Virus record (IMG/VR): IMGVR_UViG_3300021420_000040 | Span: 1-56,181 of that record | Length of the DNA stretch: 56,181 nt | Reading direction: 5' to 3' (one strand) | Origin: a virus | Lineage: Duplodnaviria; Caudoviricetes | Shown: positions 19,017-52,635 of the stretch, piece after piece | Layout of the letters: each line of letters begins with the position of its first letter | How positions within the stretch are numbered: position 1 is the first letter of the stretch | Position numbers and translations under genes: made by a program | The notes under the pieces: model-generated | The model's database searches: none | Seen by the model: only the letters and a program-made list of their open reading frames with translations | What the model was told of the DNA's origin: nothing

Positions 19017-19028
19017 AATCTCCTTTCC

Positions 19029-33598: not shown

Positions 33599-34523
33599 CT
33601 ATGTAATATTCGTTATCTTCACGCCCATACGGGGTGACAGATCAGCTAGTTGCCACGTGAGATAAATGTTCGAAACTAATACGCGCTGATTGCTTGGTTT
33701 GACCCAGGGATCGATGACGAAGTAGTCCGCTTCGTGGAAGGTGGGGAAGAGGTATTTCGAGTTCATTATGTAAGCAACGTTCGCCAAGCAGTTGCGATCC
33801 GCCAGCACGATACAGTTGTTAAACAGGAAGTGGTAGCGGAACCCGGCTTGCAGGGCTTCCTTGTCCTGGAGATTGTTCTCGTAGCGCTGGTAGGTAGCGA
33901 AGGCTTGTTTGAAGTTCGCGTATCGGGTATTGTCCATCACCATCAGGTCGGGTTCGTCGTAGCCGAACACTGTAGACCAGTACGCTGTGTCGGCGTTGGC
34001 TGCGGTCAAGTTTGCCGAGCCTCCGGAGACGTTGGCCTGCGGTTGCCAGAAGGTGTTGCCGGCGGTCGAGCGGTTGATGCCGGCGATGGTGTTGGTGGTT
34101 TGGCCGATCCACTGGTCGATGTTGTCGATGTCGAGCGAAGTGTTCTGCGGAGCCACGCCGTAGAGAGCGCGTGCGAGCTTCTGCATGAACGAGCCGGCAG
34201 CCGTCTGGAATTTCTGCCGAACGATGTCCACGCCGGCATACCCGCCGCGACCGAGAATGATGTCGGTGTAGGGCAGCACGACGGCTTCGTAGTAGAAGCG
34301 CCATTGCTGCTCGGCGGGCTGCACTACATCCTGGAGCGCGGTGTTCAAAAGCTGCGCGCCGTAGTAAGCGCCTCCAGTCGTTTCCTCCGAGAAGAATTCC
34401 GGGTACACGAGAGCGCCGCCGGCCATCTTCTTGCCGCGCCGGACGAGTGCCCACAGAGTAGGACTTGGCAAAAGCACCTGATCGCCTAAAACCGGGGCCA
34501 CGAACTTAGTTACGATAGCTTGG
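33599..34523 (-). CDS. Major capsid protein, exon 2
   Basis: HK97-like motifs (AGINRST..FWQ, EPDLMV, F...IVLAD); open frame extends upstream of 34501 as QAIVTKF. Confidence 0.85.
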
Positions 34524-37396: not shown

Positions 37397-37740
37397 TTCC
37401 TGCCCACTTTTGCCAGTGCTGCAAGCTCCATTTCCTTCTGCACGGCCTCGGCGATCTCTTCCCAATCGGGAATGTCCAAAATCTCAAGAGCGTGAGCCAC
37501 GTCAATCATGCCTACTTTTTTCAGTTCAATAATTTGGGATCGAAGGGCTGATTCCGACATGGGCCGAATGGAACCTTCCGCGAGCCGGATGTCGTAGCGG
37601 TCTGCCGCTTCCGCTGGCTCCCACACTACCTTGTCCGACATATCGGCGCTTTGTTCTTCGGGCTTCTTCTGGTCTTCGTTCGGAGCCGATTGCTTCAGTT
37701 TGTCCATCAACATCCCGAGTGTGCCCTGTGCTCCGCTCAT
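37393..37740 (-). CDS. Portal protein, C-terminal part
   Basis: YDIRLAEGS..P.S...R...LKKVGMID....LEILDIP.WEEI resembles P22-like portal C-termini. Confidence 0.65.
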   Translation of the reverse strand: MSGAQGTLGMLMDKLKQSAPNEDQKKPEEQSADMSDKVVWEPAEAADRYDIRLAEGSIRPMSESALRSQIIELKKVGMIDVAHALEILDIPDWEEIAEAVQKEMELAALAKVGRK

Positions 37741-39236
37741 ACGGTGGCCTCACGTACCGCTTTTTTGATCTTCCGGCTGGAATAGAACGTGCGCTTGTTC
37801 GTCTGAAAAGTGGCCATTGTGTAGAACGCCAGTTCCGCTGCACGCTGCACCGAATAGGCGAAAAGCCTTGATTTTAGGCGGGTAATCGACTGTGACTGGC
37901 TCACCGAAGATTCGAATAGATCAGCGGAAATGTTCCCGGCTCCGGGATTTCCCTGCCTCGATTGCGTGAATCCCTGGAGTTCCTTCTGAAGTTGCAGATA
38001 TTGCATCGGAAGCTGGACCATCTGTGCCGGCATCTGCGGGGGATACTTGAATTCAATCGAGTTCTGCGGAGAGTTCGGATCGACCACGATCAATTCTCCC
38101 GGCAGTCCTCCAATTGAATCCGCCGTGATTCCCGAGGCCGCGTTAATGACCACCACCGCGTTGTTCGTCCGGTAGGCATTCTCGAAAGTCTGCGTCATCA
38201 ATCGTTCCGAGGCGTCCTGCAAACTCTTGGTGATCTTCGAAGGGGCCGGTGCCCACACCGTATCGTAGGGAGGAAGCGCCCACACCGGAACTATCGGCCA
38301 CATGAGTTGAAGCGGCACCCAACTGTCGCCGTCTACTAAGATGGTTCCTTCGGCGTCTACAATCATTCTGCCATTCGGGTATTTCGGGAGCATCTTCGGA
38401 ATCGGCATCGAGCGCTTGGCGAATTCGGTTTTTTCGGCATCGGTCGGCTCTCGAAGCGTCGAATCTTTGGCGTAAAGAGTCCGCAATCGGAGGAGTCCAT
38501 CGGCGTTGTACTGCTGCCCTCCGGGAAGTCCCCGGACTGTTACCGACATTGGCCCGGGAGGCATCTCAATTCCGCCGGCGGGAGGGCCTGCCAGAGCCTC
38601 GGCTTTGGCCGTCTTCGGATTGATCTGGTCGGAATGGTCGGGGAAGCGTAACTTGATCTCATCGAGGTACATCTGGTCTTCGATGCAAACCCATGTCCAG
38701 TCATCCGGCCACGGGCTGATCGGATCGACGTAAATTCCCTGCTGTTTACGCGCTCGGAGCCAGGTATTTCCTTCTCCCTGCCGAGCGAGCGGATCGTATC
38801 CGACCTGAAGGAACGAAGTACCGCCGAACTGCGCAAATATCTGCGATTGCAGCAGATAGAAGTTGAATTTCTCCTGCTTCCAATGCTCCTGGAAGGCTTT
38901 CTCGCGCTGCTCGTCTCGGCCATTCTCTTTGTGATTGATGTGGACGCGGATCGAAGCGTCGGTCAGGTCGGTAGCGTCGGAGAGAAGCAAAATCTGAAGC
39001 TGTGGAGCGCGGATTTGCGGACGGAAGGTCGGAGTCTTGCGGGTGCGATCACGTAGATTATAGAAATTAAGGGTGTCTTCGTCGTGATTTGGTCCGTAAA
39101 CCTCTCTTCTCGCATCTTCACTTATGCGAATCAATTCGTCCAGTTGGCGGCTTCTCAGGTCTTTTTCCGAACCGGAATCACCGCTATTCTGCGGGGTTGC
39201 GCCGCCCGAAGTTCGGAACACTGTAAATGGGGGCAT
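37737..39236 (-). CDS. Portal protein, N-terminal part (P22-like)
   Basis: GTSFLQVGYDP, IYVDP, KYPNGR, SLQD, G...SRQG; position between terminase and scaffold. Confidence 0.82.
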   Translation of the reverse strand: MPPFTVFRTSGGATPQNSGDSGSEKDLRSRQLDELIRISEDARREVYGPNHDEDTLNFYNLRDRTRKTPTFRPQIRAPQLQILLLSDATDLTDASIRVHINHKENGRDEQREKAFQEHWKQEKFNFYLLQSQIFAQFGGTSFLQVGYDPLARQGEGNTWLRARKQQGIYVDPISPWPDDWTWVCIEDQMYLDEIKLRFPDHSDQINPKTAKAEALAGPPAGGIEMPPGPMSVTVRGLPGGQQYNADGLLRLRTLYAKDSTLREPTDAEKTEFAKRSMPIPKMLPKYPNGRMIVDAEGTILVDGDSWVPLQLMWPIVPVWALPPYDTVWAPAPSKITKSLQDASERLMTQTFENAYRTNNAVVVINAASGITADSIGGLPGELIVVDPNSPQNSIEFKYPPQMPAQMVQLPMQYLQLQKELQGFTQSRQGNPGAGNISADLFESSVSQSQSITRLKSRLFAYSVQRAAELAFYTMATFQTNKRTFYSSRKIKKAVREATV

Positions 39237-40245: not shown

Positions 40246-41982
40246 TTAGGCTACCTCTTCCTCGTCATCTTTTTTCGGATGGTCTATCAATCGGGAAATC
40301 ATTTCGAAGTGTCGGCGCATCGCCGCTTCCGGCTCGTACTGGACCGTATCCCCTCGGCCTCGAATCTGACGGATAGCGTCAGCCATGTCTTCATCGGCCT
40401 GGGGCCTCACTGGATTCGGGCTTCTCGGGGGAGCGTACTGCCGCATGGCAATATTGCCGAGCATCGCTCCGAAAAGAATGTCGTCGTGCCCTTCCTCGAC
40501 TTCGGGCCTAACGTCCTTGATGGTGCAGCGCTCGATCTGGCTGGCAAGGGCATCATCGAAGATTGATATTCCATAGTCACCGTCAGTGCCTGAGCCTTCC
40601 CGAAGCCCGACACGCAACTGCTCGAATAGCACGGTGCGCATGTGCCCGGTAGTTTCAAATCCGAAGGTCATCCGACTCTTCGATCCAGCGATTTTGTCGT
40701 CTTTGCCTTTCCAGAAGTAGATATTCGGATACTTGAGTCCATCGCGGAGCATCGAGAGAACTGTATATCCGTAACCTCCTGTAAGTTCAGGGTTAAGCAT
40801 CGCCCGGTTATAGTGTCGGCCAATCGAAGCTCCATAGGTCGCAAATAATTCGGGGATGCAATACGCAGAGTAACGAGCGACCTGATGCCCTGTATTTCCA
40901 TTCCAAACGACCATTGCAGAAAAGTCTCGCCCTTCGATACCTCTAGCAGCGTCCATCCCCGCGTAGTAGTAATCTCCGGGTCGAGGGTCTTCCCAGATGT
41001 GGAGGTCGCCTTTGTAGTGCTCTCGGAACTTGAATTCTCCTTCGAGCGATTTTTCAAGGAACCCCCTAGCCTTCGGTGGTCGGACGTTCTTCTTTGCCCA
41101 TCTTACCTCTTCTCCGGTGAATGCGGGGCGTCCTGAAGCGATGAAACTTTCTTCTGCTGTAGTGGGATATTCTTGATGAAAGGTATCAATGTTTCCTCCG
41201 CATTCCGGAGAACTGATCTTGAGTCTCCGCCATGCGAGTTGCGCTTTCGAGAATCCTCTGGCGAGCAGTTCTTTTTCTTCTTCATCGGCGGGCGCATCCT
41301 TTGCGAATTCTTCCGGCGCTACGCAGGCCGGATCGTCGGTCCAACTAAGAAATACCGCTTCCCACTCGCTCTTGCCCTCGGCAGCATCCCAATACATATC
41401 GTGGAATACTTCCCCGTCGCCTTCGGAGCCGTTCGGCGTCGATTCGATCACTCCGATGGTTTCCTTGTGTCCCGAAAGCGCCGGCAGCAGGGAAATGAAG
41501 GCATCGGGTGAAACCCAGTGAGCGCACTCGCTGGCATGTAGGGCTGACAGCGTGAATCCTCGGCCAGAGGTATCTTTGCCAGCGGTAATAATTTGGATTA
41601 CGCTATCTTGTCCCGATGGTCGGGGGAAGGTAAGCTGCCGCTCAATCTGCTTGATATTCAGGAACGGTACTGCCGGAATGAAGTCCTTCGGTACGCGGAA
41701 TAGTTCCTTCGAAGTCTTGAACTCGTGGGCAACGATCAGGGAATGCGATCCGGGAAGGCAGATGGCGTGGCAGAACAGAAGTCCTTCCGTCCAAGATGAG
41801 CAGGTCACACGACGGGCCTTGTCCACAATTAAACGTATGGGCTTACCAGCGTCTTTCTGTTTCTGGGCCGCGAGATGGAGTTTTTTCTGATTGAACTTAA
41901 ATATGAACGGAACAGTTATATGGCTATCTCTGTCCTTAATTCCGAGTCCGTTTAAGAATCGCTCGCAAGCATCTAGGTTCAT
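40246..41982 (-). CDS. terL: Terminase large subunit
   Basis: KARR Walker A variant, GRGFTL..LHASE, ESTPNG, FHQEYP, GMDAARG, HDDILFG. Confidence 0.92.
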   Translation of the reverse strand: MNLDACERFLNGLGIKDRDSHITVPFIFKFNQKKLHLAAQKQKDAGKPIRLIVDKARRVTCSSWTEGLLFCHAICLPGSHSLIVAHEFKTSKELFRVPKDFIPAVPFLNIKQIERQLTFPRPSGQDSVIQIITAGKDTSGRGFTLSALHASECAHWVSPDAFISLLPALSGHKETIGVIESTPNGSEGDGEVFHDMYWDAAEGKSEWEAVFLSWTDDPACVAPEEFAKDAPADEEEKELLARGFSKAQLAWRRLKISSPECGGNIDTFHQEYPTTAEESFIASGRPAFTGEEVRWAKKNVRPPKARGFLEKSLEGEFKFREHYKGDLHIWEDPRPGDYYYAGMDAARGIEGRDFSAMVVWNGNTGHQVARYSAYCIPELFATYGASIGRHYNRAMLNPELTGGYGYTVLSMLRDGLKYPNIYFWKGKDDKIAGSKSRMTFGFETTGHMRTVLFEQLRVGLREGSGTDGDYGISIFDDALASQIERCTIKDVRPEVEEGHDDILFGAMLGNIAMRQYAPPRSPNPVRPQADEDMADAIRQIRGRGDTVQYEPEAAMRRHFEMISRLIDHPKKDDEEEVA

Positions 41983-42404
41983 GTGGTAGTTCCGGCCCCA
42001 CCACCTTGCTTCTTAGTGTATTCATTGGCGCATAATTCTGAGCAGAAATAGATCGACTTTATGACGCCGGGATGATGGATGTCATTATAGTCACGCTTCG
42101 CAATCCACTTGGGCATGCCATTCGGCTTTAGGCCGGATAGATTCTTCCCGCACGTCGGTCCAGAGCACTTGATATGCTTCTCGTTTCCGATGCGTTCATT
42201 CAGGATTCGAGCGCCTTCCTCCCAGATGTTCTGCAAGTCATGGTGGTATTCGAGAGCGCGGTCGATCCGAAGGTCGTGGAAGGGCCGAATCCAGTCCTCC
42301 CGATCCTGCTTCACTTGGTCCCAACGTATCTGGACCGCTTTGCGCCGGACTTCAGAGATGTGCTTCTCTTTTTCGACTTCTGCAACCACGGGTTCTTCAG
42401 GCAT
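41979..42404 (-). CDS. Hypothetical protein with TRASH-like Zn motif
   Basis: C...CGK...YFCSELC. Confidence 0.6.
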   Translation of the reverse strand: MPEEPVVAEVEKEKHISEVRRKAVQIRWDQVKQDREDWIRPFHDLRIDRALEYHHDLQNIWEEGARILNERIGNEKHIKCSGPTCGKNLSGLKPNGMPKWIAKRDYNDIHHPGVIKSIYFCSELCANEYTKKQGGGAGTTT

Positions 42405-42742
42405 TATCGGTGTCCTCTCGCACCCCCGCTTACGAATCCTCCGAGCAGGGCCATCGCGTAGTCAACTAGGTCTTGCTGCATGGCCGTGTTCAATGATATT
42501 CCGAATCGATCCAGCCGGACGGCCAGTTCTTCCATTTCCTCTTTCAGAACGGTGCTGACTGCTTCCTCGACATTGATGTGTGCCTGTGTCGGTCGGGCGC
42601 TCCCTTGCGCCTGCACTTCGGGAGGGTCGGGGATATGATCGACCTTCACCGTCTCCCGGGGCGGATCGGGCACGTCGGGATTGATGCCGTATTGCTCGGC
42701 CATTTCCCGATTGTAGCGAAGGGCTGGTTTACGTTCAGGCAA
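42404..42742 (-). CDS. Hypothetical protein
   Basis: Coupled ORF upstream of terL. Confidence 0.6.
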   Translation of the reverse strand: MPERKPALRYNREMAEQYGINPDVPDPPRETVKVDHIPDPPEVQAQGSARPTQAHINVEEAVSTVLKEEMEELAVRLDRFGISLNTAMQQDLVDYAMALLGGFVSGGARGHR

Positions 42743-42977
42743 AAATCCGCGCCTTCTTTTCTCGGGCGCGTCGAGCTTCTACTTCTCGGCGGAAGCGCTC
42801 TTGTTCTGCCCGGAATTTCCCGCCCTCGATGGCCTGAGATTTGCTCACAACCCAATCTAGCTTGCATGTATCGCAGTGGAACAACCAACTGTCATCCGTT
42901 TCACCGACGAGCTTGATGGCGCTCCGCTCACATCCTCTTTGTTTCGTATGGTTCGGACACTTAGGCAACTCGCTCAA
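42735..42977 (-). CDS. Small Zn-ribbon protein
   Basis: CPNH...C...FHCDTC; GAGGGAG RBS. Confidence 0.6.
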   Translation of the reverse strand: MSELPKCPNHTKQRGCERSAIKLVGETDDSWLFHCDTCKLDWVVSKSQAIEGGKFRAEQERFRREVEARRAREKKARIFA

Positions 42978-43344
42978 TTTGCTCGTACTCCCTCATGTTC
43001 CGGCGAATGTCGCAATCGACATACCGGGATTTCTGGTTCCATTTCCACCAGCGAATGTATCCCTTGCCGATATGCTTGAATGGCATGGGAGTCCGGCCAA
43101 GTGCTTTGCTTCTGATTAGATATTCCTCGTAGCGCATCCGGCACTGGTCCATGACGATCTTGTAGTGTTCCGGGGAAAGGTTGGTGATCTTGCCGTGGCC
43201 GACTTCGAACAGGAGATGACGAACGTAACGTGCCCAGTTGGCCCGCTGCCGAATGGCTTGCCGGCTTCCCGGCATGATCTTTACCGGGAGTAGTACCCAA
43301 TCATCGACGGTCGGCACCGTTCGAAGAAGGGAAGTGGCCATCAT
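42961..43344 (-). CDS. Hypothetical protein, probably leaderless
   Basis: Promoter -10 lies 7 nt before the ATG. Confidence 0.6.
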   Translation of the reverse strand: MMATSLLRTVPTVDDWVLLPVKIMPGSRQAIRQRANWARYVRHLLFEVGHGKITNLSPEHYKIVMDQCRMRYEEYLIRSKALGRTPMPFKHIGKGYIRWWKWNQKSRYVDCDIRRNMREYEQIERVA

Positions 43345-43351
43345 GCCCGAG

Positions 43352-43417
43352 AGAATAGTCCCTTATCCCGATGCGTGTCAAACAATTACTTGAAAACAGC
43401 TTAGTTTGTAGTAGGAT
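43352..43417. promoter_or_regulatory. Back-to-back sigma70-like promoters
   Basis: Minus strand TTGACA-18-TATTCT; plus strand TTGAAA-16-TAGGAT. Confidence 0.6.
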
Positions 43418-43425
43418 ACGGAATC

Positions 43426-43590
43426 ATGGCCATGTCGGCTCAAGAGATTATCAAGCAGCACCACGCCGAAATGGGCCGGCGGGGAGGCCAGTCCAAGAGC
43501 GCTGCCAAGAAGCGAGCGTCTATCGCCAATCTCGAAAAGGCCCTCAGTAAGCGGTGGAAGAAGAAGTTCCGGTTGCGGAAGCCGAAATGA
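43426..43590 (+). CDS. Small basic protein with KGG-like motif
   Basis: Own translation ...AEMGRRGGQSKSAAKKRASIANL... Confidence 0.65.
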   Translation: MAMSAQEIIKQHHAEMGRRGGQSKSAAKKRASIANLEKALSKRWKKKFRLRKPK

Positions 43591-43733
43591 GATACGGGCT
43601 TATGATTGGAAAGAAGCTCTCGGCCCTACAGGCGGCTGTCGATCCGCTCTACCGGGTAATCATGCTGCTTTTGATGGTGGTCGAAATCGGCCTGCTTTGC
43701 TGGCTTATTACTCTCGAAGCCCTACACCGATGA
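43587..43733 (+). CDS. Small single-TM protein
   Basis: ATGA overlap; VIMLLLMVVEIGLLCWLITL. Confidence 0.5.
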   Translation: MRYGLMIGKKLSALQAAVDPLYRVIMLLLMVVEIGLLCWLITLEALHR

Positions 43734-43858
43734 TCTCCCTAATCCTACTCGTTTTCTTCGTGTATTACGGGATTCCGTTCATCATCGACATGCTTGTGTT
43801 GCTCGTTCTGTTTATAGTCCGAATTTTTCCTAGGTCCGGAGCGGGTGCTCCATCTTAA
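43730..43858 (+). CDS. Small hydrophobic protein
   Basis: ATGA overlap; MISLILLVFFVYYGIPFIIDMLVLLVLFIV. Confidence 0.45.
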   Translation: MISLILLVFFVYYGIPFIIDMLVLLVLFIVRIFPRSGAGAPS

Positions 43859-44002
43859 TCCCGCATCGCTTGCAAAACCACGAAGGCTCATTGTTATAGA
43901 GGCCCCAGGTCGGCTGGTGCTTCGTCGCCCGCTGGTCCCCGTCGATCTTGCAAGTTCTCTTCGTCCAGGACTTCGGAACAGCCTGGACCTCGATGGTCAT
44001 TC

Positions 44003-44572
44003 TCATGGGACTTGCATCCACCACAGGGGGTTGCTGATGCTGTAGCCTGCTCCGATGTGATTGAATCGAATGGCCGGCATCGACCCTGTTTTGTAGCCCT
44101 TGCGGTTCATCTCCGAGCAAATCGTATCATCCACTCGGGTCGGATCGCACTTATTGAACTCGGTTAGGATGCCCTTCCGAACGAAAGCTATCCCTCCAAC
44201 GGAATGCTTTTCGATGACTTCCGGCTCATGGAGCCAGTCCGATCCCGAGGGATAATCCCCATCCGAGATGCTAGTCGCAGCGAGTAGTCCGAACTCGGAA
44301 TGCCGTTCCATAACTTCGATGCCCCGCTTCACGAAGTTCTTTCCGAGGATCAGGCAGTCATTGTCGGTCACCACGTAGATCGGACCATTCGCTACTTTCT
44401 CGGCTGCGGCCTTAGCTTTAATGGTGTCGTTTTTAATTGGGGCAAGATAGCAGTCCGGTTCGAGCCACCAGCGTTTCCAGCAGACCATCGACATTGCTCT
44501 CCGGAGAGGATTGCCGCCATCGAAGTCGAGGATGAAGACACTAATCACAGTACTGTCGATTGGCCTGCGCAT
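44003..44572 (-). CDS. GT-A fold glycosyltransferase-like protein
   Basis: YVVTDNDC DxD motif; D..IC..M..KGY...HIG. Confidence 0.75.
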   Translation of the reverse strand: MRRPIDSTVISVFILDFDGGNPLRRAMSMVCWKRWWLEPDCYLAPIKNDTIKAKAAAEKVANGPIYVVTDNDCLILGKNFVKRGIEVMERHSEFGLLAATSISDGDYPSGSDWLHEPEVIEKHSVGGIAFVRKGILTEFNKCDPTRVDDTICSEMNRKGYKTGSMPAIRFNHIGAGYSISNPLWWMQVP

Positions 44573-45231
44573 TTGTTACAGAATCTTTTGCCTTGAACGA
44601 TCACCGTCATAAGCGAATTGCAATATGGGCACTCGCCGGCGCTGCTACTTGTCGGTCCCGGCTGCACTCCATCGGTCTTGTCGGTTCGGCTAAGATAAAA
44701 ATATAAAATCTCATCGACAAAATGTTCCGTCTTAACGATTCCGAGTTTGCTCAATTCTCCGGCCCATCGACTATCCTCGGCGAATCCTCCATACATAGGA
44801 ACGGCTAGTGCAAGCTCCCTGCGAATTGGATTTAGATGGGAAATATTCCGATGCCAGCTTTTCGATCCATCGGCGTAAGTTTTGTCGAACCAGCTTCCAC
44901 AGAGGAGGGAATGATAAGTAGGCCCGGGAAGATCAACGCCATCCTCGCTGGCCTGGACGCGAAATCCTATCTGGTCTACTCCGTCTAAAAGTGGAAGAAT
45001 GCGCGAAACATAGGTATCACTCACGCGGTCATCGTCGTCGATCACAGATATATATTCAGCATTCGTTTCCTCTCGCATTTTTTGACGATTGACTCCGAGG
45101 GGCAATGCCGGATCAAACATGCGGACCATGTGGCAAACTTCGGGCACAAGTTGCGGTTCGAGGTTGGCCCTAAGTCTTTTTAGAAAATCGGCCCGCGATG
45201 GTTGAGTCAAAGTTTGGATGCACCACTTCAC
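44545..45231 (-). CDS. GT2-like glycosyltransferase with C-terminal Zn ribbon
   Basis: EYISVIDDDD, ED..WA, ILYFY; CPYCNS..TV...G..CNKC. Confidence 0.8.
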   Translation of the reverse strand: MKWCIQTLTQPSRADFLKRLRANLEPQLVPEVCHMVRMFDPALPLGVNRQKMREETNAEYISVIDDDDRVSDTYVSRILPLLDGVDQIGFRVQASEDGVDLPGPTYHSLLCGSWFDKTYADGSKSWHRNISHLNPIRRELALAVPMYGGFAEDSRWAGELSKLGIVKTEHFVDEILYFYLSRTDKTDGVQPGPTSSSAGECPYCNSLMTVIVQGKRFCNKCAGQSTVL

Positions 45232-46064
45232 TTCCGCACCCGCTCGAAGACCAACCCGCAGGCATTGCATGCTACCTTTCCGTCGTAGGGAACCGTCATA
45301 ATCGACCCGCACTTCGGGCATTTGCCCATACTCAGGACTCCCGGAGTCTTGGGAGGGGTCCAGCCGTGCGTATCGACGGCAGAGTCCATGAGTTTTGCTA
45401 GCTTTTCGGCATCTCGGACGCGCTCGGCAGTCATTTCGGGACTGTAGTACAGGGAGTCGGGATCATCTTCTCCGTGCCGGGCGAGCCGTTCTTTCGTGGT
45501 TTCGTCCTCCATCTCTGGGAAGCCGTGCGAGAAGTGCCGGTGTTCGATGTCGAAAGGAACAAAACGCCTCCTGCCGATCCTATCAGCCAGTTCATTAATC
45601 CAAGCATCCCCAAAATCTGAACAGAAGTACGGCGGAATAAAATAACCAAGCGCCTCGACCCACCGACGGCTGATGAAGGGATGCGGTCCGAAGTCGCCCT
45701 GATGACCCAGCACATCTCGGCCATGCACTAGAAGAATCTTGTCGGGCACCTCGGCGAAAGCGTTTTCTACTAAAGCGTTCCAGTGATTCGTCATAAAAAC
45801 CATGTCATCGTTTGCCTGCTGAACAATATCCCCATGACAGGCTTCGAAACATTCATTCCAGTAGATCGTCATCACCCTACGGCGTGGACCAATGATGACC
45901 TTGGCGTCGCATTTTTCTGCTTCTCTCGCACTTTCTTCATCGTCTTCGTCAAAACGGGCAACTATTTCCAAGTCTCCAAAATCCGACACGTTTGCCCAAG
46001 CAGACTCCGCCATACGTTTGAATATTTCAGGCCGCTTCCGGGATGGTAAGAGCAATGAGATCAT
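45228..46064 (-). CDS. GT2-like glycosyltransferase with C-terminal Zn ribbon
   Basis: ISLLLPSRKRP, FDEDD, ANDDM, IEHRH; CPKCGS..TV...G..CNACG. Confidence 0.8.
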   Translation of the reverse strand: MISLLLPSRKRPEIFKRMAESAWANVSDFGDLEIVARFDEDDEESAREAEKCDAKVIIGPRRRVMTIYWNECFEACHGDIVQQANDDMVFMTNHWNALVENAFAEVPDKILLVHGRDVLGHQGDFGPHPFISRRWVEALGYFIPPYFCSDFGDAWINELADRIGRRRFVPFDIEHRHFSHGFPEMEDETTKERLARHGEDDPDSLYYSPEMTAERVRDAEKLAKLMDSAVDTHGWTPPKTPGVLSMGKCPKCGSIMTVPYDGKVACNACGLVFERVRK

Positions 46065-47050
46065 TTGAATGCCCTCTTCGCTTCCTCGGCTGCGGCTTTG
46101 TAGTGGGGCAGGGCTGCCTTCACCGAGAAGTGCTCGTCGGCAATCTCCCGGCTCCGGCGACTGTATTTCTTGGCCCGATCCTGCCGAGAGAAGCACCACT
46201 CCAAGAATCGGCACATGGCATCGAAGTTTTCAGTGCAAAGTCCGTTGGTGTCGATGTAGTTGGCGTAGTTCAATCCCGGAAGATTCCGAGCCATTACCGG
46301 CATGCCGGCGGCAAGCGCTTCGGTAAAAGAAGTGCAAAGGGGCCGAGCATCCCCTCGGTCGAGATTCACGAATACCCGATACTCGCTGAACATTTCGGCC
46401 ATCTGCTTTCCGGTCTTGAATTCGTTGGCTCCGTCATGGTGGTACATCTTACCCGGGAACTTCTCGGATAGTTTTTCGAACAGGTCAACGCCGCAAGCAT
46501 CCTTCGGACGCCACAGGTCCTTGCCGGCGAGCACGAACAAAGCTGCTTCCTTTGAGCCGGTCCAGGGATTTTGGAACCACCAGTCTCCGACAGGAATGGG
46601 AGCAACTTCTGATTGCGGATATTCGGCTCGCCACGCCGGAAGCGCCGCCGGCATGCCGAGGAGGATCGGCAGATTCTTGATCTTCTCTCGATAGTTCGGA
46701 GGGAGATAGCCGGGATGATCGAACCAACAGACGAACACGATGGTCGGGCATTCGATCCGGTGACAATGGTTCTTCCAGTCGGCGGCGTAATTGAATGTCT
46801 CGACCGATTCGATTAGCAGGTCGAACTTCGAGAAGTCGCATTCACTGTAGGGCTTTTGCTCGAAGGTGATGTCGAGGCCAAGTTCTTTCCATTCGGCTTG
46901 GCGGTCGATAGCACTGGCGAGAGGAAGGATTCTAGGGTCCCAAGTAGATAATTCGTCGCAAGGCGGACCAATCACAGTGAGGCCGGGAAAGATCGAGGCT
47001 AATTTCTCGATCAAAGCAGAGACGCATGGATAGAGGAGCGCAGTCTTCAT
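46061..47050 (-). CDS. GT-B (GT4-like) glycosyltransferase
   Basis: YRVFVN...SFTEALAAGMPV...NG...REIA.EHFS. Confidence 0.8.
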   Translation of the reverse strand: MKTALLYPCVSALIEKLASIFPGLTVIGPPCDELSTWDPRILPLASAIDRQAEWKELGLDITFEQKPYSECDFSKFDLLIESVETFNYAADWKNHCHRIECPTIVFVCWFDHPGYLPPNYREKIKNLPILLGMPAALPAWRAEYPQSEVAPIPVGDWWFQNPWTGSKEAALFVLAGKDLWRPKDACGVDLFEKLSEKFPGKMYHHDGANEFKTGKQMAEMFSEYRVFVNLDRGDARPLCTSFTEALAAGMPVMARNLPGLNYANYIDTNGLCTENFDAMCRFLEWCFSRQDRAKKYSRRSREIADEHFSVKAALPHYKAAAEEAKRAFK

Positions 47051-48408
47051 TAACGGTTCACTGGACGAAGCGAAATATTGTCGGTGATCCATTCATGAAG
47101 GAACTTCCGGGCTTCATGTAATTCCGCCCGCGTCATCGTAGGAATATCCAGTGTGCAGGTGTCCGGGTTCTCGGGGTCAAGTTCCCACATATCAGAGAAG
47201 TTACTTGATGTAATTGTAACACCGAACTTCTCCGGCGCGTTCCAGACCTCGCATCCTGGAAATGGCTGAAAGGTGTGTAGACTGGCGGCGTCGGGGCGTG
47301 CCTTTTCGAGCCAGTCCCGCATTTCGTAAATGGATTCCCAAGTCTCTCCGGGAAATCCTACGAGCAGGTACGCCCTGGTAGCAATACCGGCATCCCTACA
47401 AGTTTTAACGCCTCTCTCGTTGGCCTCGGGCGTGGTGCCCTTGTTCATCGCCTTCAGCATTCGGGCCGACCCGTGCTCGACTCCGAATCCAAGTTCCGTG
47501 CAGCCGAGCCTAGCCAAATCACGGAATAGTTCCGGGTCGAACAGGTTCACCCGGCTCCAACCCCGCCACAGCATCCCGTAGTCATGAAACAGAGACGCTA
47601 GTTCTCGGCATCGCTTGGCTTTGATGGTAAGTACGTCGTCCCAGACTCGGAGGGCAGTAACTCCGAGTTCGGCAAGGGCTTTGACTTCCGCCTCGATTTG
47701 CGCGAAGGTTTCTTCTCGGAGCTTGGTTCGGGCGTCGGCGCAGAAGGAGCATCCGTAGGGACATCCTCGGGCGGTCCAGAGGGAACCGATGGTTCGTTCT
47801 GCGACATCAATGGACTTTCCATGTATGGAAGCAATTTGTAGTCCTCCTGTCGAGTAATTCTGCCACAGGTCATAGGCCGGCAGCTTCATCTTCGTCACAT
47901 CGGGCAGTGGTGGTGATGGAAGGTGCTGCATCCCGAATGGATTGAACCAAGTAATGCCGGGAATCTTGGTCAGGTCGGAGCCGGCATCGAAGGCGTTACA
48001 GAACTGGACGAACGATTCTTCGCACTCTCCGGTCATCAGGAAGTCGAAGCCTTCGAAATACTTCTTCTGCTTGAACTGGGCGTGCGGCCCTTCGATGATG
48101 TAAGTCACATGAGGACCGCCGGCGACTTTTACCTTTGCCGGCCAGAGCGCTGCCAGTTGCCCGCCGAACTCGGCATTCGGAGTGACAATCGAGACGCCTA
48201 GGATGTCGCAGGGTTCGAGCAGGTCGGGATCGACGCGCAGCTTGTTTGCCTCTGCATCAAAGGTGCTTAGTTTGTGGCAGTCTACAATTTTTACCGAATG
48301 ACCGGCCTCGCGGACCGCCGAAGCGAGGTACAAAATTCCAAGAGAAGCGTGCAGGCTCGGATTGAACAAAGAAAATGACGGTCCTCCGGTCAGAATGACT
48401 TTAGCCAT
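47050..48408 (-). CDS. B12-binding radical SAM enzyme (class B methyltransferase-like)
   Basis: LGILYLAS, AGGPHVT, RGCPYGCSFC, GVEHGS..MLKAMNKG, LVGFPGET. Confidence 0.92.
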   Translation of the reverse strand: MAKVILTGGPSFSLFNPSLHASLGILYLASAVREAGHSVKIVDCHKLSTFDAEANKLRVDPDLLEPCDILGVSIVTPNAEFGGQLAALWPAKVKVAGGPHVTYIIEGPHAQFKQKKYFEGFDFLMTGECEESFVQFCNAFDAGSDLTKIPGITWFNPFGMQHLPSPPLPDVTKMKLPAYDLWQNYSTGGLQIASIHGKSIDVAERTIGSLWTARGCPYGCSFCADARTKLREETFAQIEAEVKALAELGVTALRVWDDVLTIKAKRCRELASLFHDYGMLWRGWSRVNLFDPELFRDLARLGCTELGFGVEHGSARMLKAMNKGTTPEANERGVKTCRDAGIATRAYLLVGFPGETWESIYEMRDWLEKARPDAASLHTFQPFPGCEVWNAPEKFGVTITSSNFSDMWELDPENPDTCTLDIPTMTRAELHEARKFLHEWITDNISLRPVNR

Positions 48409-48586
48409 GCGCCCTCCGACGAGCTACTAGTGCTCCCGTTGCCGGCGTGGGGTCAAGCCTAGAGGCAGAAGTTATCGTCGGCGTTTTCAGGAGCACTAAT
48501 AGATCGTCGAACGAGTCGGCGCGCACATAGTCATTGTCACTGATGAAGACCCAGCGCGACTTGAACCGATAGATTTTAGCCTTCAC
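48401..48586 (-). CDS. Hypothetical protein
   Basis: Fills the gap between coupled genes. Confidence 0.45.
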   Translation of the reverse strand: MKAKIYRFKSRWVFISDNDYVRADSFDDLLVLLKTPTITSASRLDPTPATGALVARRRAHG

Positions 48587-49338
48587 GCTTTAACTGCCTT
48601 CACGAGAATGTGATGGCCGAGATAGCGCTCGAACCACTCTTCGGGGATGATGTTCCAAGGGAAGGCTTTCCGATAACGGTGCTGCCGATATTTCTTAATT
48701 CGCCACGGGAAGATGTGGCGCTTCTCGATGCTGGTTACCCGGAATCCCGAAGACTCGACCAAGCGCTTCGCCTCCCGCATAGAATACCACCGAACGAGCG
48801 GACAACCGGCACTCGCTTCGGGCTGCCGACGGAATAGGTGCTTGAGAGAGTATTTGGCGTAGAGCATGATCCGAAGCTCGCCCGAATGCTTCAGATATTT
48901 ATGCGCGTTCTGCAAAACGGTTTCGGGATGCGGTGTGTGGTGCAGGACTCCGAAAGAATAAACCAGGTCAAAGGGAACAGCCGATTGTTCCTGCTCCAAC
49001 TCTCCATTGGAGTAAGCCAAGAAGAATTGTGCGTTCCCGAGGCGGCCAATTAGCTCCCGTCTTGTCCTAGCCAACCGAATGCTCTCCATGGAAGCGTCGG
49101 TGCCAACGACCATAGCGCCAGCACGAGCAAACTCAATAGCGTCTGTCCCGATGCCACAACCAATCTCCAGAACGTACTTCCCTCTCCATCTCGGGAAGTC
49201 GGCGAACTCCCGGATATGCGGCTGCACGAAATAGCGCTGGGCCGAAATCTGCTGACTCCACCACATCGAGCCGACGGGAGCGGTGCCGTGCCACGCCTCG
49301 CAGGGAGCCTTGTCCCAGAAGTCAGCTATCTCACTCAT
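48583..49338 (-). CDS. Class I SAM-dependent methyltransferase
   Basis: VLEIGCGIG, FDLVYSFGVLHHTP. Confidence 0.9.
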   Translation of the reverse strand: MSEIADFWDKAPCEAWHGTAPVGSMWWSQQISAQRYFVQPHIREFADFPRWRGKYVLEIGCGIGTDAIEFARAGAMVVGTDASMESIRLARTRRELIGRLGNAQFFLAYSNGELEQEQSAVPFDLVYSFGVLHHTPHPETVLQNAHKYLKHSGELRIMLYAKYSLKHLFRRQPEASAGCPLVRWYSMREAKRLVESSGFRVTSIEKRHIFPWRIKKYRQHRYRKAFPWNIIPEEWFERYLGHHILVKAVKA

Positions 49339-50125
49339 CGGAGACCATTCTGTTGATCTTGTCGGCAGCTTCGGAGAGATGGGCCTTGATGCCGGAACGC
49401 GCGGCAACAAACTGGAAGTTGCGATTGTCGCGGGGAAGGCACGGACCCGAATAGGGCCATCCGGGAGTGAGGTAGGCATTGCCGATGCGCGGGTCCGTGC
49501 CGACGGCCTCCATGATCTTTTTCGAACTTGCTCCCAGTTTCTCGGCCACGAGGTGCAACTGATTGGCGAGAGAAATCTTCATGGTCAGGGCGCAATTGAG
49601 GGTGATCTTGGCCAGTTCGGCTTCGAGGAGCGACATACGCTTGACCGGAACCTGGGCAATAAGGCTGTAGATGATCTCAGCGCGGTCACCCGCAGCCTTA
49701 CACCCCTCTCCGATCAGAATGAAGGCCGGATCGAGCAAATCCCGATCCACAAACTCTAATCGAATGAATTCGGGCTTGTAGACGATGTTATCCCCGACGA
49801 TCTGCCGAAACTCGTCGCAGCTTCCCGGCGTGGTGGTCGAAGTCACGATGTAGAGGTAGTCCTTTCGGTTATGGAGCCGAACGGCATCTCGGAACTGGGT
49901 TAGGGCGTCAACGAGATGGGCATTCGAGAAGGAGCCATCGGGGAGCGAGGGCGTCTGCACGATGAAGATGCAGGCGTCGGACTGATCTACCGCTTGGCTG
50001 ATCGAGACTTCCGAGACCGCCGGCACATGGTCATAGCCGACGGCCCGGAAGCCCTTTTGCCGAAGCATAGCGAGGATCGGCCTGCCGACCTTGCCGAGTC
50101 CGCACACGCAGAGGCGTTCACTCAT
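49331..50125 (-). CDS. UDP-glucose/GDP-mannose dehydrogenase family, C-terminally short
   Basis: GLGKVG, VQTP, STTTPG, PEFI, AELAK, DPRIG, GPCLPRD. Confidence 0.88.
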   Translation of the reverse strand: MSERLCVCGLGKVGRPILAMLRQKGFRAVGYDHVPAVSEVSISQAVDQSDACIFIVQTPSLPDGSFSNAHLVDALTQFRDAVRLHNRKDYLYIVTSTTTPGSCDEFRQIVGDNIVYKPEFIRLEFVDRDLLDPAFILIGEGCKAAGDRAEIIYSLIAQVPVKRMSLLEAELAKITLNCALTMKISLANQLHLVAEKLGASSKKIMEAVGTDPRIGNAYLTPGWPYSGPCLPRDNRNFQFVAARSGIKAHLSEAADKINRMVSDE

Positions 50126-50384
50126 TGGAAATTGAGCATCGGCGAGAATGATTCCATTCTATCATTCGATTACAAAGAGCATAGAGAAACCATCCTGTCC
50201 ACCAAATGATAGGAAAGAAAATCATAAATAATCCCCAGTATGCCGCCAAATTACACATTTATGCCTCCGATCACTTTCTTCAGCTTCACATCATGGCACC
50301 GGCACGAACAGTTCAGCTTGAAACACTTGGCATGGTCCCGTTTCCGGCAGGCTGCCGACCGCTGGACCGGGGTGGGCCGCCGGC

Positions 50385-50562
50385 TCAATACTTTTCGTCC
50401 TTGTGCCGGAAACTCGTCCCTCGGATGTACCCTCGAATCTCCCTCAAATCCTGGCACGACCGGCACATACATTCCTGCCAGACCGACTCATCCGTGTGCT
50501 TTTCGACCTCTTTGTACTCCCGGTGCAGGTAGCCAAGCCCCTTATCCTCATCGGTCATATCC
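50385..50562 (-). CDS. Small hypothetical protein (start approximate)
   Basis: GGAGG RBS; CMCRSC motif. Confidence 0.45.
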
Positions 50563-50748
50563 ATCCTCCATCCACTGCTCAATGCGAGGCCAGCAAAAGC
50601 GAACCAACCTTCCAACCTTGAAATGTGGCAGCGGTCGAGGCGCTCGCTTCCGAGTCAATTGGTAGACCTTCCTGGTCAATTCGTCGTCGTTCTTCGCAGG
50701 AATCTTTAGGCGCTTACCTACCTCAACCGCGTCTAGAATTTCGGTCAT
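50548..50748 (-). CDS. Excisionase-like HTH protein
   Basis: ILDAVEVGKRL...VYQL...LPHFKVGRLVRF...IEQWM. Confidence 0.75.
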   Translation of the reverse strand: MTEILDAVEVGKRLKIPAKNDDELTRKVYQLTRKRAPRPLPHFKVGRLVRFCWPRIEQWMEDGYDR

Positions 50749-51068
50749 CGCCATCCTCCACAATTGCACCCCGTTTCCGTACAACACCCAAGCGTTCCCC
50801 GGTGGGCGGATTTACCGTGCCTACAGTACGAACACCGGGTTGCCGCCAAAGGCTTATCGGGCACAGACTCCCGTCCCTCATCACTACGAACCTTTCGGTC
50901 CCGAGACACGTACGGTACTCGATGATGTATTTCAACGCCTTCCTTCGGGCCGGCTGCACTCAGCTTCTCCACCGCAAGCTCTTTCAGCGTCACGCCCCGT
51001 TCAACCGCTTCCGTCTTTAACCGCTTCAGAAGCTCGGGGTCTACATCTCGGATATTCAAATCTGGCAT
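50745..51068 (-). CDS. Ribbon-helix-helix regulator with Cys/His tail
   Basis: LNIRDVDPELLKRLKTEA..RGVTL; CSYCRH...H...C...CNC. Confidence 0.75.
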   Translation of the reverse strand: MPDLNIRDVDPELLKRLKTEAVERGVTLKELAVEKLSAAGPKEGVEIHHRVPYVSRDRKVRSDEGRESVPDKPLAATRCSYCRHGKSAHRGTLGCCTETGCNCGGWR

Positions 51069-51118
51069 GCTGTGTACTCTGTCACAGGTGTTACAGGCGT
51101 GTCAAGGGGAATGTGACA
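51069..51118 (-). promoter_or_regulatory. Promoter with TGTNACA operator-like boxes
   Basis: TTGACA on the minus strand; tgtcaca, tgttaca and tgtgaca boxes directly upstream of the RHH gene. Confidence 0.55.
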
Positions 51119-51491
51119 TCGGAAGTAACTAAGCTGCTTTGTTTAAGACCCGCCCCACAGAATTGAGGTAGGCCCGGTGGATGTCAGTGCGCCCGGAGTC
51201 GCCTGAGAGAACCCTGGCTCGCCGTTTCGCCGATGGGTCCCCGTCTTTCTTCGAAGTAAACGCATTAGAACATTATCAGACACGAACGCGCAAACCTTTC
51301 ATCGTCAATGCGTTGAGAGTGAGCTAGCTTTCGTCCCGTTGCCTTTCTCGCTCCGTGCGCGTCTTTCACTCACATCCCGAGCCCGTTTCGTGCTACGTTT
51401 CCGTTCCTCCGTGTCGAAGCGCCTCGATACCCGACTTCTAAAACCATACTTTCGCACTGAAAAGAAAAGAGTTCCGCGCTGGCCTAAACGA

Positions 51492-51734
51492 ATGCACGCC
51501 AGCCGCCGCAATCTCGTTCTCATCTTGCTTGCTCCCGATCGCGCTACGCTCCGTGGCCTTGCTCATCGCACTGGAATGAGTGTTTCCGGGCTCTGGAAGG
51601 TCCTCCGTGGCAAGGCAAAGCCGTCTTTGCGCTCTGCAAGGCTTATTGCGCGTGCATTGGGGGTTTCCACCGATACGTTCGTCGATGTTCTAGAAGCGTA
51701 TGTCTGGCCGAAGACGGAAAAGCCTATCGAATGA
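51492..51734 (+). CDS. XRE-family HTH regulator
   Basis: TLRGLAHRTGMSVSGLWKVLRGKAKPSL..ARLIARALGVS. Confidence 0.8.
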   Translation: MHASRRNLVLILLAPDRATLRGLAHRTGMSVSGLWKVLRGKAKPSLRSARLIARALGVSTDTFVDVLEAYVWPKTEKPIE

Positions 51735-51751
51735 GTTGCATCCGATAGGCT
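51721..51751. terminator. Hairpin between convergent genes
   Basis: agcctatcg...cgataggct. Confidence 0.5.
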
Positions 51752-51861
51752 TATTCCGAAGTGTCGAAGTGTGAGTGAGTTAGCGTCTATCGTCGGATTG
51801 CAATCGAAGAACGAGACCGATTACTCCGACGTAGAGAGTCAAAAGCCATGCCATGAACATG

Positions 51862-52347
51862 TTAGTTGACCGTTTCCTTTCCGCGCTTCGGCGATAGAAG
51901 CGCCGTTATTAGCGCGTCTATGCCGATTGATTCCTTGAGCGTATCGTCAAGACCGGGATCGTCTTTGTACGAATCGAGATTGCGCTTTGCTTGTGCTTCG
52001 TCAATCCCAGGGTCAATCTCCCGCGCTATGTCCCATGCTTCTGATTCGCTGGCAATTACCGCTTCTGCCGGTTTTTCTGTCCACTTGTTCCCACGAGGTT
52101 TTGACCGAGGGTCCGCAAGCCAAGCCTCTGTCCCTGCAAGACTTCCGACCACATGTCCCAGTTCATGCGCGAGACTTGTGCGGAGTGAAAGTGGCGTGTT
52201 TTCTGCCAGTTCATCCGGCACTATCTCCAATCGGAACATCATTACTGGGATTCCATCTGGCATTTCGAATTGCTCGTGCTGTGTGACCGACGCCGTAGGC
52301 TTTGCTTCGGGGTCAATCTCCACGAAAATAACTGCTCTTTTCTTCAT
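51862..52347 (-). CDS. HExxH metallopeptidase-like protein (ImmA/IrrE-like)
   Basis: LAHELGHV...E.EAW. Confidence 0.7.
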   Translation of the reverse strand: MKKRAVIFVEIDPEAKPTASVTQHEQFEMPDGIPVMMFRLEIVPDELAENTPLSLRTSLAHELGHVVGSLAGTEAWLADPRSKPRGNKWTEKPAEAVIASESEAWDIAREIDPGIDEAQAKRNLDSYKDDPGLDDTLKESIGIDALITALLSPKRGKETVN

Positions 52348-52422
52348 CGGTTTAATCTCCTCTGTGTGACGCGTTGAGCGCGTCCGCCGGGCATCCATTT
52401 CGGGATACCCGGAAGTGTGCTC

Positions 52423-52635
52423 TTACGTATCGAGCGGGTCCGCCATTGTATCGGCGAGCGCGTATCCGAGTGCCTCTGCAACCCTTTCCATTGCAAGGCT
52501 AAACGGCACGAGCTCGCCCGTAAAAACCATCACCGCAAAAACCGCTCCAAGCGCGGCTAAAACAATCACTGCGCGGACAGTGAAAGCCTTAACCCGACGC
52601 ATGCAGCGCTTCCCGCATTCAATGGCGCGCTTCAT
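52423..52635 (-). CDS. Small membrane protein
   Basis: ATGA overlap; one TM helix. Confidence 0.5.
   Translation of the reverse strand: MKRAIECGKRCMRRVKAFTVRAVIVLAALGAVFAVMVFTGELVPFSLAMERVAEALGYALADTMADPLDT

Follow-up and report, generated by a model that had tools for sequence, protein, structure and literature searches.

What a tailed phage might do with a compact block of sugar-active genes lying next to its packaging genes is the question raised by positions 44003-50125 of the IMG/VR virus record IMGVR_UViG_3300021420_000040 (Duplodnaviria; Caudoviricetes). The window analyzed here is that whole record, a stretch of 56,181 bases with an estimated completeness of 100%. The block, which we refer to as the cassette, consists of eight open reading frames (ORFs) that follow one another in the same orientation on the minus strand (50125-44003); ∼2 kb separate it from the large terminase gene downstream, and the terminase, portal, and capsid genes share its strand. 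In order, these ORFs are predicted to encode a short nucleotide-sugar-dehydrogenase-like protein, a class I S-adenosylmethionine (SAM)-dependent methyltransferase, an orphan protein of 61 amino acids (aa), a B12-binding radical SAM enzyme, and four glycosyltransferases, one of which is of the GT-B type and three of the GT-A type (GT-A 1, GT-A 2, and GT-A 3). We put at about even the chance that the cassette specifies a soluble pathway that builds and tailors a glycan and attaches it to virion proteins, the acceptor, the sugar, each reaction, and the timing being inferred. A preliminary description had recognized here a cluster of seven genes for sugar synthesis, methylation, and transfer upstream of the packaging genes. 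The position and all seven families or folds stand, but the eighth ORF and the truncation of the dehydrogenase had been missed.

The seven junctions within the cassette all overlap or abut (in order, an 8-nt overlap, GTGA, an 8-nt overlap, TAATG, ATGA, GTGA, and GTGA), so translational coupling, as suggested earlier, is plausible. With 52-56% GC, the cassette is no outlier in a window that has 50-58% throughout. The highest 19-residue Kyte-Doolittle mean among its proteins is 1.61, and hence none has a clear membrane segment. Pfam scans of the eight cassette ORFs and 64 other ORFs of the window (72 in total) revealed no Gtr, flippase, or O-antigen polymerase family (GtrA, GtrC, Wzx/Wzy, and acyltransferase), no deoxynucleoside monophosphate (dNMP) hydroxymethylase, TET/JBP, DNA C5-methylase, or DpdA, no integrase, and no phage DNA polymerase. 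The cassette thus lacks both the membrane component of Gtr-type or O-antigen seroconversion modules and the enzyme making hydroxymethyl-pyrimidines that marks T4 glucosyltransferases and TET/JBP-associated systems, which agrees with what the preliminary description had noted about membrane segments, flippases, and acceptor-making genes. As a DNA sequence, the 6.1-kb block matches none of 50,697 phage records. A known defence system was considered and rejected, PADLOC giving only domain-level matches for the methyltransferase (mad2) and the radical SAM enzyme (PDC-M51A).

Pfam, PHROG, and AlphaFold2 (AF2) models searched with Foldseek place one GT-B and three GT-A genes in the cassette, as initially proposed, with GT-B and GT-A 3 placed through their predicted models. 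The GT-B gene (46061-47050, minus), which is GT4-like, encodes 329 aa from an ATG that overlaps the radical SAM stop codon (TAATG). Its Pfam matches are weak (E = 0.003-0.011), and its profile matches GT4 C-terminal domains with E = 0.0014. At E = 0.001 or better, the AF2 model (predicted local distance difference test score, pLDDT, 75; predicted template modeling score, pTM, 0.78) matches 500 or more PDB structures. Those listed are GT-B throughout, with template modeling scores of 0.38-0.61, and include 7qsg, MshA, BshA, and PimA (E = 3.6e-11 to 1e-8), which points to a two-Rossmann GT-B fold for the modeled product. Retaining GT4 enzymes are characterized by an EX7E motif. A pattern search finds no E-x7-E after residue 230 of GT-B; the second Glu is invariant in our alignment A4 (E258), and the position eight residues earlier is an invariant Arg (R250).

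GT-A 1 (45228-46064, minus; 278 aa) and GT-A 2 (44545-45231, minus; 228 aa from a GTG start) were assigned by PHROG families (phrog_14945, E = 2.6e-24, and phrog_14775, E = 3.6e-24, respectively) together with invariant motifs, NDD at residues 85-87 of the former (alignment A1) and DDDD at residues 65-68 of the latter (alignment A2). Their Pfam GT2 scores, 20.2 and 15.9 bits, fall below the 23.3-bit gathering cut-off. GT-A 3 (44003-44572, minus; 189 aa from ATG 44572 or 181 aa from GTG 44548), the only GT-A for which a predicted model was used, has no Pfam or PHROG match. Its AF2 model (pLDDT 84) matches GT-A folds in Foldseek searches (E = 9e-7 and weaker in the PDB, 1.3e-8 among viral models), and the protein has an invariant D-x-D inside DNDC (D70 and D72). 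A GT-A fold with a DxD-type motif is therefore assigned to all three genes. Close homologues of GT-A 3 number only 20 in a set of 5.8 billion proteins. When the 50,697 phage records were searched by tblastn, GT-B had no match, relatives of GT-A 1 that are 26-29% identical were found in 47 Streptomyces phage and two Pelagibacter phage records, and the only cultured-phage match of GT-A 2 was Pas33 of Actinoplanes phage phiAsp2 (37% identity over 86% of its length).

Both GT-A 1 and GT-A 2 end with a zinc ribbon, CPKC...CNAC at residues 249-269 (window 45258-45320) and CPYC...CNKC at residues 201-221 (window 44569-44631), respectively. An hhalign comparison shows the two ribbons (CxxC...CNxC) to be homologous, with a probability of 96.8%, whereas no alignment is obtained between the catalytic parts. 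In more distant relatives the transferases have no ribbon, and just upstream of them, in three such loci (L032, L037, and L039), lies a small ORF whose product starts with a Cys-rich segment resembling a zinc ribbon, which has two CxxC pairs in L032 and L037. Because it is fused in the window and encoded by a separate small ORF in these relatives, the ribbon behaves as a module, fused or free, which would most simply be a docking element.

The B12-binding radical SAM enzyme (47050-48408, minus; 452 aa) contains a radical SAM domain (PF04055, E = 4.3e-20) and a B12-binding domain (PF02310, 35.2 bits versus a cut-off of 32.1). Across 20 homologues, the Cys of its CX3CX2C motif, CPYGCSFC at residues 216-223 (window 47740-47763), do not vary. 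The protein scores below the cut-off of every NCBIfam subfamily (125 versus 600 bits for PhpK, the best, and 65 versus 500 for AprD4), and an ESM Atlas look-up returned generic B12 radical SAM clusters only. The family is large: of the candidates scored, 417 proteins reach E = 0.001 or better. The best PDB sequence match is AprD4 (6fd2, E = 7.9e-14), which we take to be a dehydratase with a B12-type domain, so methylation is a likely, not a certain, reaction for the phage enzyme. GenK and GenD1 of gentamicin are cobalamin-dependent (class B) radical SAM enzymes that act on sugars. The window enzyme has in common with these and with AprD4 an N-terminal B12-type Rossmann domain, the CX3CX2C core, and an association with sugar pathways, but it is phage-borne and far below all NCBIfam cut-offs, and its reaction is a predicted one.

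The neighborhoods of more distant homologues are informative about what this family does. In two loci (L027 and L043, the latter on a 128-kb contig that may be partly cellular), a radical SAM protein ∼53% identical to that of the window has as neighbors three GDP-mannose or dTDP-glucose 4,6-dehydratase-like short-chain dehydrogenases/reductases (SDRs), a TylC3-type sugar C-methyltransferase, and a class I methyltransferase. Five other viral loci (L032, L035, L037, L038, and L039) encode radical SAM proteins that are 50-52% identical, each together with a double GT-A (540-627 aa), part of which is a GT-A 1 homologue. A class I methyltransferase is present in two of the five, as is a GT-A 2 homologue, and a full-length dehydrogenase (412-437 aa) in four, L032 having instead an SDR 4,6-dehydratase/epimerase-like protein. 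An SU10-type major capsid gene lies upstream in four of these loci and an SU10 head-tail adaptor gene directly downstream in three; the same enzyme set is thus found within or beside head genes. Taken with the sugar enzymes around L027 and L043, these gene neighborhoods connect the radical SAM family with sugar chemistry and, where it occurs in phages, repeatedly with virion genes.

Two of the homologous loci contain genes of unusual structure. In L013 (6300-8717), located on the same 119-kb viral contig as L049 (7489-9906), an 805-aa ORF ends in a radical SAM half that is 70% identical to query residues 216-452 and is directly followed by a GT75-like gene; it may be a fusion form of the enzyme. 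In L027 (2998-5205), the Pfam match of a 735-aa GDP-mannose-dehydratase-like SDR is split between residues 5-96 and 484-722, the ∼390-residue insertion being possibly an intein or homing element.

Closer to the window, a search with the radical SAM protein identified 13 related viral loci, to which a profile search added more. The cassette is kept in 14 related viral contigs with 41-87% protein identity, and is therefore more than a chance assembly. Counting one locus per contig, with the radical SAM gene present in 14/14 by construction, GT-B was found in 12/14 and GT-A 1 and GT-A 2 in 11/14 each, most of the misses being loci cut by contig ends and one a different 119-kb contig. GT-A 3 is present in only 2/14. 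On the other hand, a GT75 (RGP-family) gene, the product of which matches PDB 7xpr and 7yua at E = 8e-67, is found in 13/14 and a further weak GT-A of ∼240 aa in 12/14; the window phage has neither of these two genes that most relatives carry. GT-A 3 was considered as a homologous replacement of the ∼240-aa GT-A and rejected (hhalign probability 0.2%). The orphan 61-aa ORF (48401-48586, minus), which has a stop/start overlap with both neighbors, occupies the GT75 position of most relatives. It has no Pfam, PHROG, or NCBIfam match and no relative in any fetched locus by tblastn, and the idea that it is a remnant of the GT75 gene was dropped as no similarity was found.

The dehydrogenase and methyltransferase genes come and go together. 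Both are present in ten relatives (eight of the tabulated loci, G306, and one contig in which the dehydrogenase gene is cut by the contig end), and both are missing from three relatives of 91-100% completeness that keep the rest of the cassette. No record of the phage lineage has one without the other, a count that is not independent since the records are related; in the 119-kb contig G411, the methyltransferase is represented only by a weak match (E = 2.9e-5, 36% identity) lying 54 kb from the radical SAM gene. From these presence counts, radical SAM, GT-B, GT-A 1, and GT-A 2 are the constant core, to which the dehydrogenase/methyltransferase pair and the remaining transferases are optional additions. 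A cobalamin-dependent enzyme had been considered unusual in such a pathway. It is indeed rare in cultured phages, with matches in 12 of the 50,697 records and at least 80% of its length matched only in Streptomyces phage SF3 (two records, 26% identity), where the gene adjoins thymidylate kinase and NUDIX genes, but it belongs to the constant core in this uncultured phage lineage.

The cassette is, by sequence comparison, far better conserved than the phage backbone. Radical SAM proteins of related phage contigs are 74-87% identical; the protein is 87% identical in a phage with a capsid protein only 47% identical, and 74-81% identical in four relatives with terminases 36-38% identical. That glycosyltransferase content varies among cassettes that are otherwise alike suggests that the glycan is under diversifying selection, which would matter for adsorption, particle stability in soil, or evasion of host recognition.

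Some relatives have additional genes within the cassette. An RNA ligase gene (PF09414), 100% identical across three contigs, lies between the radical SAM and 240-aa GT-A genes in L003 (9356-11396), L004, and L005, and in L003 a DNA N6/N4 methylase gene is found after the 240-aa GT-A gene and before the GT-B gene. Three loci (L005, L006, and L014) harbor between cassette genes two copies each of a ∼130-aa ORF with no family match (e.g. L005 12576-12965 and 13936-14340), which is absent from the window; this distribution suggests a selfish mobile ORF.

We examined the optional pair for the chemistry it might add. The dehydrogenase-like protein (49331-50125, minus; 264 aa) matches the N-terminal NAD-binding domain PF03721 (E = 1.5e-10) over profile positions 68-182 only, has GLGKVG at residues 9-14, which fits the GxGxxG pattern, and matches the central domain PF00984 (E = 8.7e-25). 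UDP-glucose/GDP-mannose dehydrogenases have a catalytic-Cys motif of the GGxCxxKD type. In the short dehydrogenase, GPCLPRD (residues 227-233) aligns with GGSCFPKD of 3vtf, and C229 and D233 are invariant across 19 sequences. PF03720, the C-terminal UDP/GDP-binding domain, is absent from the protein and from all six frames of the window, although the same search matched 14/14 control genomes, and the score against the nucleotide-sugar dehydrogenase model TIGR03026 is 144 bits versus a cut-off of 189.8. Compared with UDP-glucose/GDP-mannose 6-dehydrogenases (3vtf and 1dli), the short form shares the NAD-binding fold, the central helical domain, and the Lys/Asn and Cys/Asp catalytic motifs, but has no PF03720 and has lost ∼30 residues of the N-terminal domain relative to 3vtf. 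It aligns to residues 24-318 of the 444 of 3vtf, the C-terminal nucleotide-binding domain being wholly missing.

This shortness is not an accident of the window. The 78 best database matches (57-100% identical, 224-316 aa) all lack PF03720, so the short dehydrogenase is, as judged from these sequences, a conserved lineage and not a broken gene. A few matches of 250-364 aa with 46-57% identity likewise lack this domain, and the matches that bear PF03720 (380-460 aa) are no more than 49% identical. Relatives were found in 82 of the 50,697 phage records. The methyltransferase (48583-49338, minus) has 251 aa counted from Met48 of a longer ORF (48583-49479), a start chosen on the basis of relatives and of the 8-nt overlap with the dehydrogenase stop codon. 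It matches Methyltransf_23 (E = 1.4e-19), as well as Methyltransf_12, Methyltransf_31, Methyltransf_25, and Methyltransf_11, and phrog_22502 (E = 3.5e-39), and has LEIGCGIG at residues 57-64. Complex predictions for the two proteins scored 0.00 in two runs, which speaks neither for nor against binding.

These findings bear on the methylated, uronic-acid-type glycan that had been proposed. The soluble cassette for glycan synthesis, methylation, and transfer holds, but with the UDP-binding domain missing, uronic-acid synthesis by this phage appears doubtful, and three near-complete relatives keep the rest of the cassette without the pair. A different role for the pair can be imagined, in which the short dehydrogenase, via an open active site, would oxidize an acceptor-bound hexose instead of a UDP-sugar, the methyltransferase would methylate the product, and the radical SAM enzyme would add a C-methyl group or make a similar radical modification. 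Such on-particle tailoring after transfer, which we think quite unlikely, would if true have a counterpart described in no virus.

The origin of the cassette was approached through cellular homologues. In contigs representing one genome per species, the only prokaryote matches of the radical SAM protein are four loci of Acidobacteriota metagenome-assembled genomes (MAGs), with 70-71% identity, two of which are on contigs of 775 and 894 kb. On these two contigs the gene stands alone: it is flanked on one side by genes for a GalT/HIT-type nucleotidyltransferase and a class III aminotransferase, and opposite these by TonB-receptor, YfiR, and histidine-kinase genes, with no adjoining glycosyltransferase gene, and this context is chromosomal. 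Of 301 sampled Acidobacteriota genomes, 21 have a radical SAM match at E = 1e-30 or better, and identity exceeds 34% only in the query's own source genome, so close cellular homologues are confined to a narrow clade. For GT-A 1 there is one weak match, with 30% identity, in 401 sampled Acidobacteriota genomes. Considering that the radical SAM protein is 70-71% identical in Acidobacteriota but GT-A 1 is nearly absent, the glycosyltransferases look phage-specific and the radical SAM gene looks to have been exchanged with the host lineage. The virus is an uncultured soil phage with a probable host in the Acidobacteriota, not the Actinomycetota, and the actinophage setting in which the cassette was first discussed is given up for this reason. 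In two of the cellular loci (L015, 8533-9552, and L017, 8436-9452), the GalT/HIT-family gene precedes the stand-alone radical SAM gene on the same strand, a possible hint at the cellular substrate of this homologue.

There is precedent for virion glycosylation by phage-encoded glycosyltransferases. It is described as established for mycobacteriophage Che8 and its relatives in statements of PMC11256854 that cite Freeman et al. 2023, and for Che8 and Rita the same work (Cell Host Microbe 31:1216) is cited in passages of PMC11256854 and PMC12582341. The cassette resembles those of mycobacteriophages in its soluble phage-encoded glycosyltransferases, in belonging to a tailed phage, and in its presumed capsid or tail acceptors, and its arrangement is the one typical of them, in which virion genes adjoin or enclose glycosyltransferase genes, accompanied or not by a methyltransferase gene. 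It adds a B12-binding radical SAM enzyme, a dehydrogenase with no UDP-binding domain, and two GT-A zinc ribbons, and it differs in host phylum and in that glycosylation is here deduced from gene content. No sequence relation was detected (GT-A 1, GT-A 2, and GT-B by tblastn, GT-A 3 and the methyltransferase being outside this search). Corndog and Myrna are also said to have virion glycosylation cassettes, and methyltransferases reportedly occur in mycobacteriophage cassettes. To our knowledge, experimental evidence of glycosylated phage particles is limited to a few actinophages.

Other known systems are more distant. In phiAsp2, Pas33-Pas35 form a block of a glycosyltransferase, an O-methyltransferase, and a glycosyltransferase, annotated as translationally coupled, directly after the tail genes; this block, itself known from its genes, has no radical SAM enzyme, dehydrogenase, or zinc ribbon. 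Its homology as a whole was rejected, because only Pas33 matches, Pas34 and Pas35 having no similarity to the methyltransferase or GT-A 1. Likewise, an adjacent glycosyltransferase pair of Streptomyces phage Faust does not mirror GT-A 2 and GT-A 1, gp78 having no similarity to GT-A 2. Giant viruses have autonomous capsid-glycosylation machinery, as in chlorovirus PBCV-1 (A064R) and in mimivirus fibril glycosylation. They resemble the window phage in encoding soluble glycosyltransferases, a methyltransferase, and nucleotide-sugar enzymes, and mimivirus R699 ranks with the best structural matches of the GT-A 3 model, but they infect eukaryotes and have no radical SAM component, and no sequence relation to the cassette is shown. 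Literature searches found no paper in which a phage glycosylation cassette is described as having a B12 radical SAM enzyme. An Acidobacteriota virus paper (PMC11924767) mentions glycosyltransferases, and a term search of it found no instance of radical SAM, methyltransferase, or dehydrogenase.

We favor virion proteins as the acceptor because the cassette lies beside packaging genes here and beside capsid or adaptor genes in distant relatives, because the transferases look phage-specific, because partners for membrane export or DNA modification and signs of lysogeny are lacking, and because of the mycobacteriophage precedent. Such a target, named already in the preliminary description, is the most plausible one. 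The cassette proteins would be cytoplasmic and their genes probably transcribed with the morphogenesis genes. The host would supply nucleotide sugars to the four soluble glycosyltransferases, which, either ahead of assembly or while it proceeds, would build a short glycan on proteins of the phage particle. GT-A 1 and GT-A 2 would probably be docked onto a common partner by their homologous zinc ribbons. The radical SAM enzyme would tailor the sugar, most likely by C-methylation or else by another radical step at an unactivated carbon, and the optional pair would contribute further oxidation and methylation.

Several points weigh against this proposal. Gene position is circumstantial evidence for an acceptor, and it is not constant, since reverse-strand genes follow the cassette in L002 and the cassette points away from the terminase gene in L012. 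A terminase search for backbone relatives free of the cassette yielded two close contigs, one of them with the cassette, and no related phage without it, so co-variation with a virion protein has no contrast set. A scan of 41500-52500 found five promoter-like and 12 terminator-like sites, which do not exceed the numbers in shuffled sequences and leave the transcription unit undefined. No mycobacteriophage among the 50,697 records matches GT-A 1, GT-A 2, or GT-B by tblastn, and the radical SAM and dehydrogenase searches of these records gave none either. Among PDB entries, zinc fingers of the GATA type, which bind DNA, match a profile of the GT-A 2 ribbon (E = 9.4e-6). Finally, soluble GT-A and GT-B enzymes with no membrane segments commonly act on undecaprenyl-linked envelope precursors.

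The last point leads to an alternative that we consider unlikely, in which the cassette is directed at the envelope of the host and alters its lipopolysaccharide, capsule, or exopolysaccharide. The enzymes would work on lipid-linked intermediates at the membrane's inner face, rely on host flippases, and thereby block superinfection or change the cell surface. The 70-71% identity of the radical SAM protein to chromosomal Acidobacteriota genes, i.e. gene flow with the host, would fit this scenario, but the host homologues stand alone with no glycosyltransferases and the GT-A genes are nearly absent from the 401 genomes. The clusters in L027 and L043 resemble deoxysugar or O-antigen-type pathways, and glycosyltransferase content varies among relatives as in serotype loci; the 72 ORFs nevertheless contain no priming transferase, flippase, polymerase, Gtr, or acyltransferase gene, and the core of distant relatives is found beside a capsid gene and in three loci an adaptor gene. 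Moreover, there is no integrase among the scanned ORFs and four related records have direct terminal repeats, which argues against a role in lysogenic conversion.

Another acceptor would be provided by five consecutive ORFs at 11551-22652 (minus) that encode proteins of 228, 1423, 259, 453, and 1207 aa with signal-peptide-like hydrophobic N termini and 23-28% Ser+Thr. They belong to no Pfam family and have hardly any PHROG matches, and exported or tail-fibre-like proteins with signal peptides are odd in a tailed phage. Some adhesins are glycosylated in the cytoplasm ahead of Sec export, so these proteins could be modified in the same way; alternatively, the glycan could be built on a soluble cytoplasmic polysaccharide or a small molecule. 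Indeed, the best structural match of GT-B, 7qsg, is a mannosyltransferase of a cytoplasmic methylated polysaccharide. However, it is one of hundreds of GT4 matches, many of which score alike, a link of the cassette to the signal-peptide ORFs by position or co-variation has been neither tested nor seen, and the module of distant relatives lies beside capsid and adaptor genes. Acceptors of this kind are improbable as well.

Least probable is modification of phage DNA, with zinc-ribbon GT-As binding DNA and glycosylating a base that the radical SAM enzyme, dehydrogenase, and methyltransferase create or tailor, for although the GATA match, the position of GT-A 1 relatives among replication and nucleotide genes of cultured Streptomyces phages, the thymidylate kinase and NUDIX neighbors in SF3, and the DNA methylase gene inside the cassette of some relatives would suit it, the GATA match is carried mainly by the Cys pattern, the ribbon of distant relatives is a separate small protein in a module beside capsid and adaptor genes, the 72 ORFs include none of the dNMP hydroxymethylase, TET/JBP, DNA C5-methylase, DpdA, and phage DNA polymerase families, and we know of no precedent for four glycosyltransferases acting on DNA.

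If the cassette does coat the particle, self-glycosylation extends to soil phages of the Acidobacteriota, a dominant and poorly cultured phylum, with a chemistry undescribed for any virus, i.e. a B12-type radical SAM step and a dehydrogenase with no nucleotide handle. In addition, such phage cassettes offer a compact, expressible context in which to find the reaction of a large uncharacterized radical SAM family.

Elsewhere in the window, PHROG and Pfam scans identified an Erf recombinase (644-1603), the large terminase (40246-41982, minus), the portal protein (37737-39236) and the major head protein (33599-34501), both encoded on the same strand as the cassette, helix-turn-helix and LuxR-type regulators, and tail-like proteins. 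The tRNA and Rfam scans of the whole window found no tRNA, no RNA family, and no cobalamin riboswitch. Directly downstream of the major head protein gene is a LAGLIDADG/HNH-type homing endonuclease gene (33110-33565, minus). Two adjacent ORFs just downstream of the capsid gene (32178-32636 and 32648-33103, minus) encode proteins of ∼151 aa each with similar Gly/Ser/Thr-rich N termini and Ser+Thr contents of 22 and 27%, respectively, which makes them candidate decoration proteins and candidate glycan acceptors. Within the structural block, flanked by large virion-like genes, there is also a gene for a GNAT acetyltransferase (27569-28072, minus), which may be a second enzyme modifying the virion.

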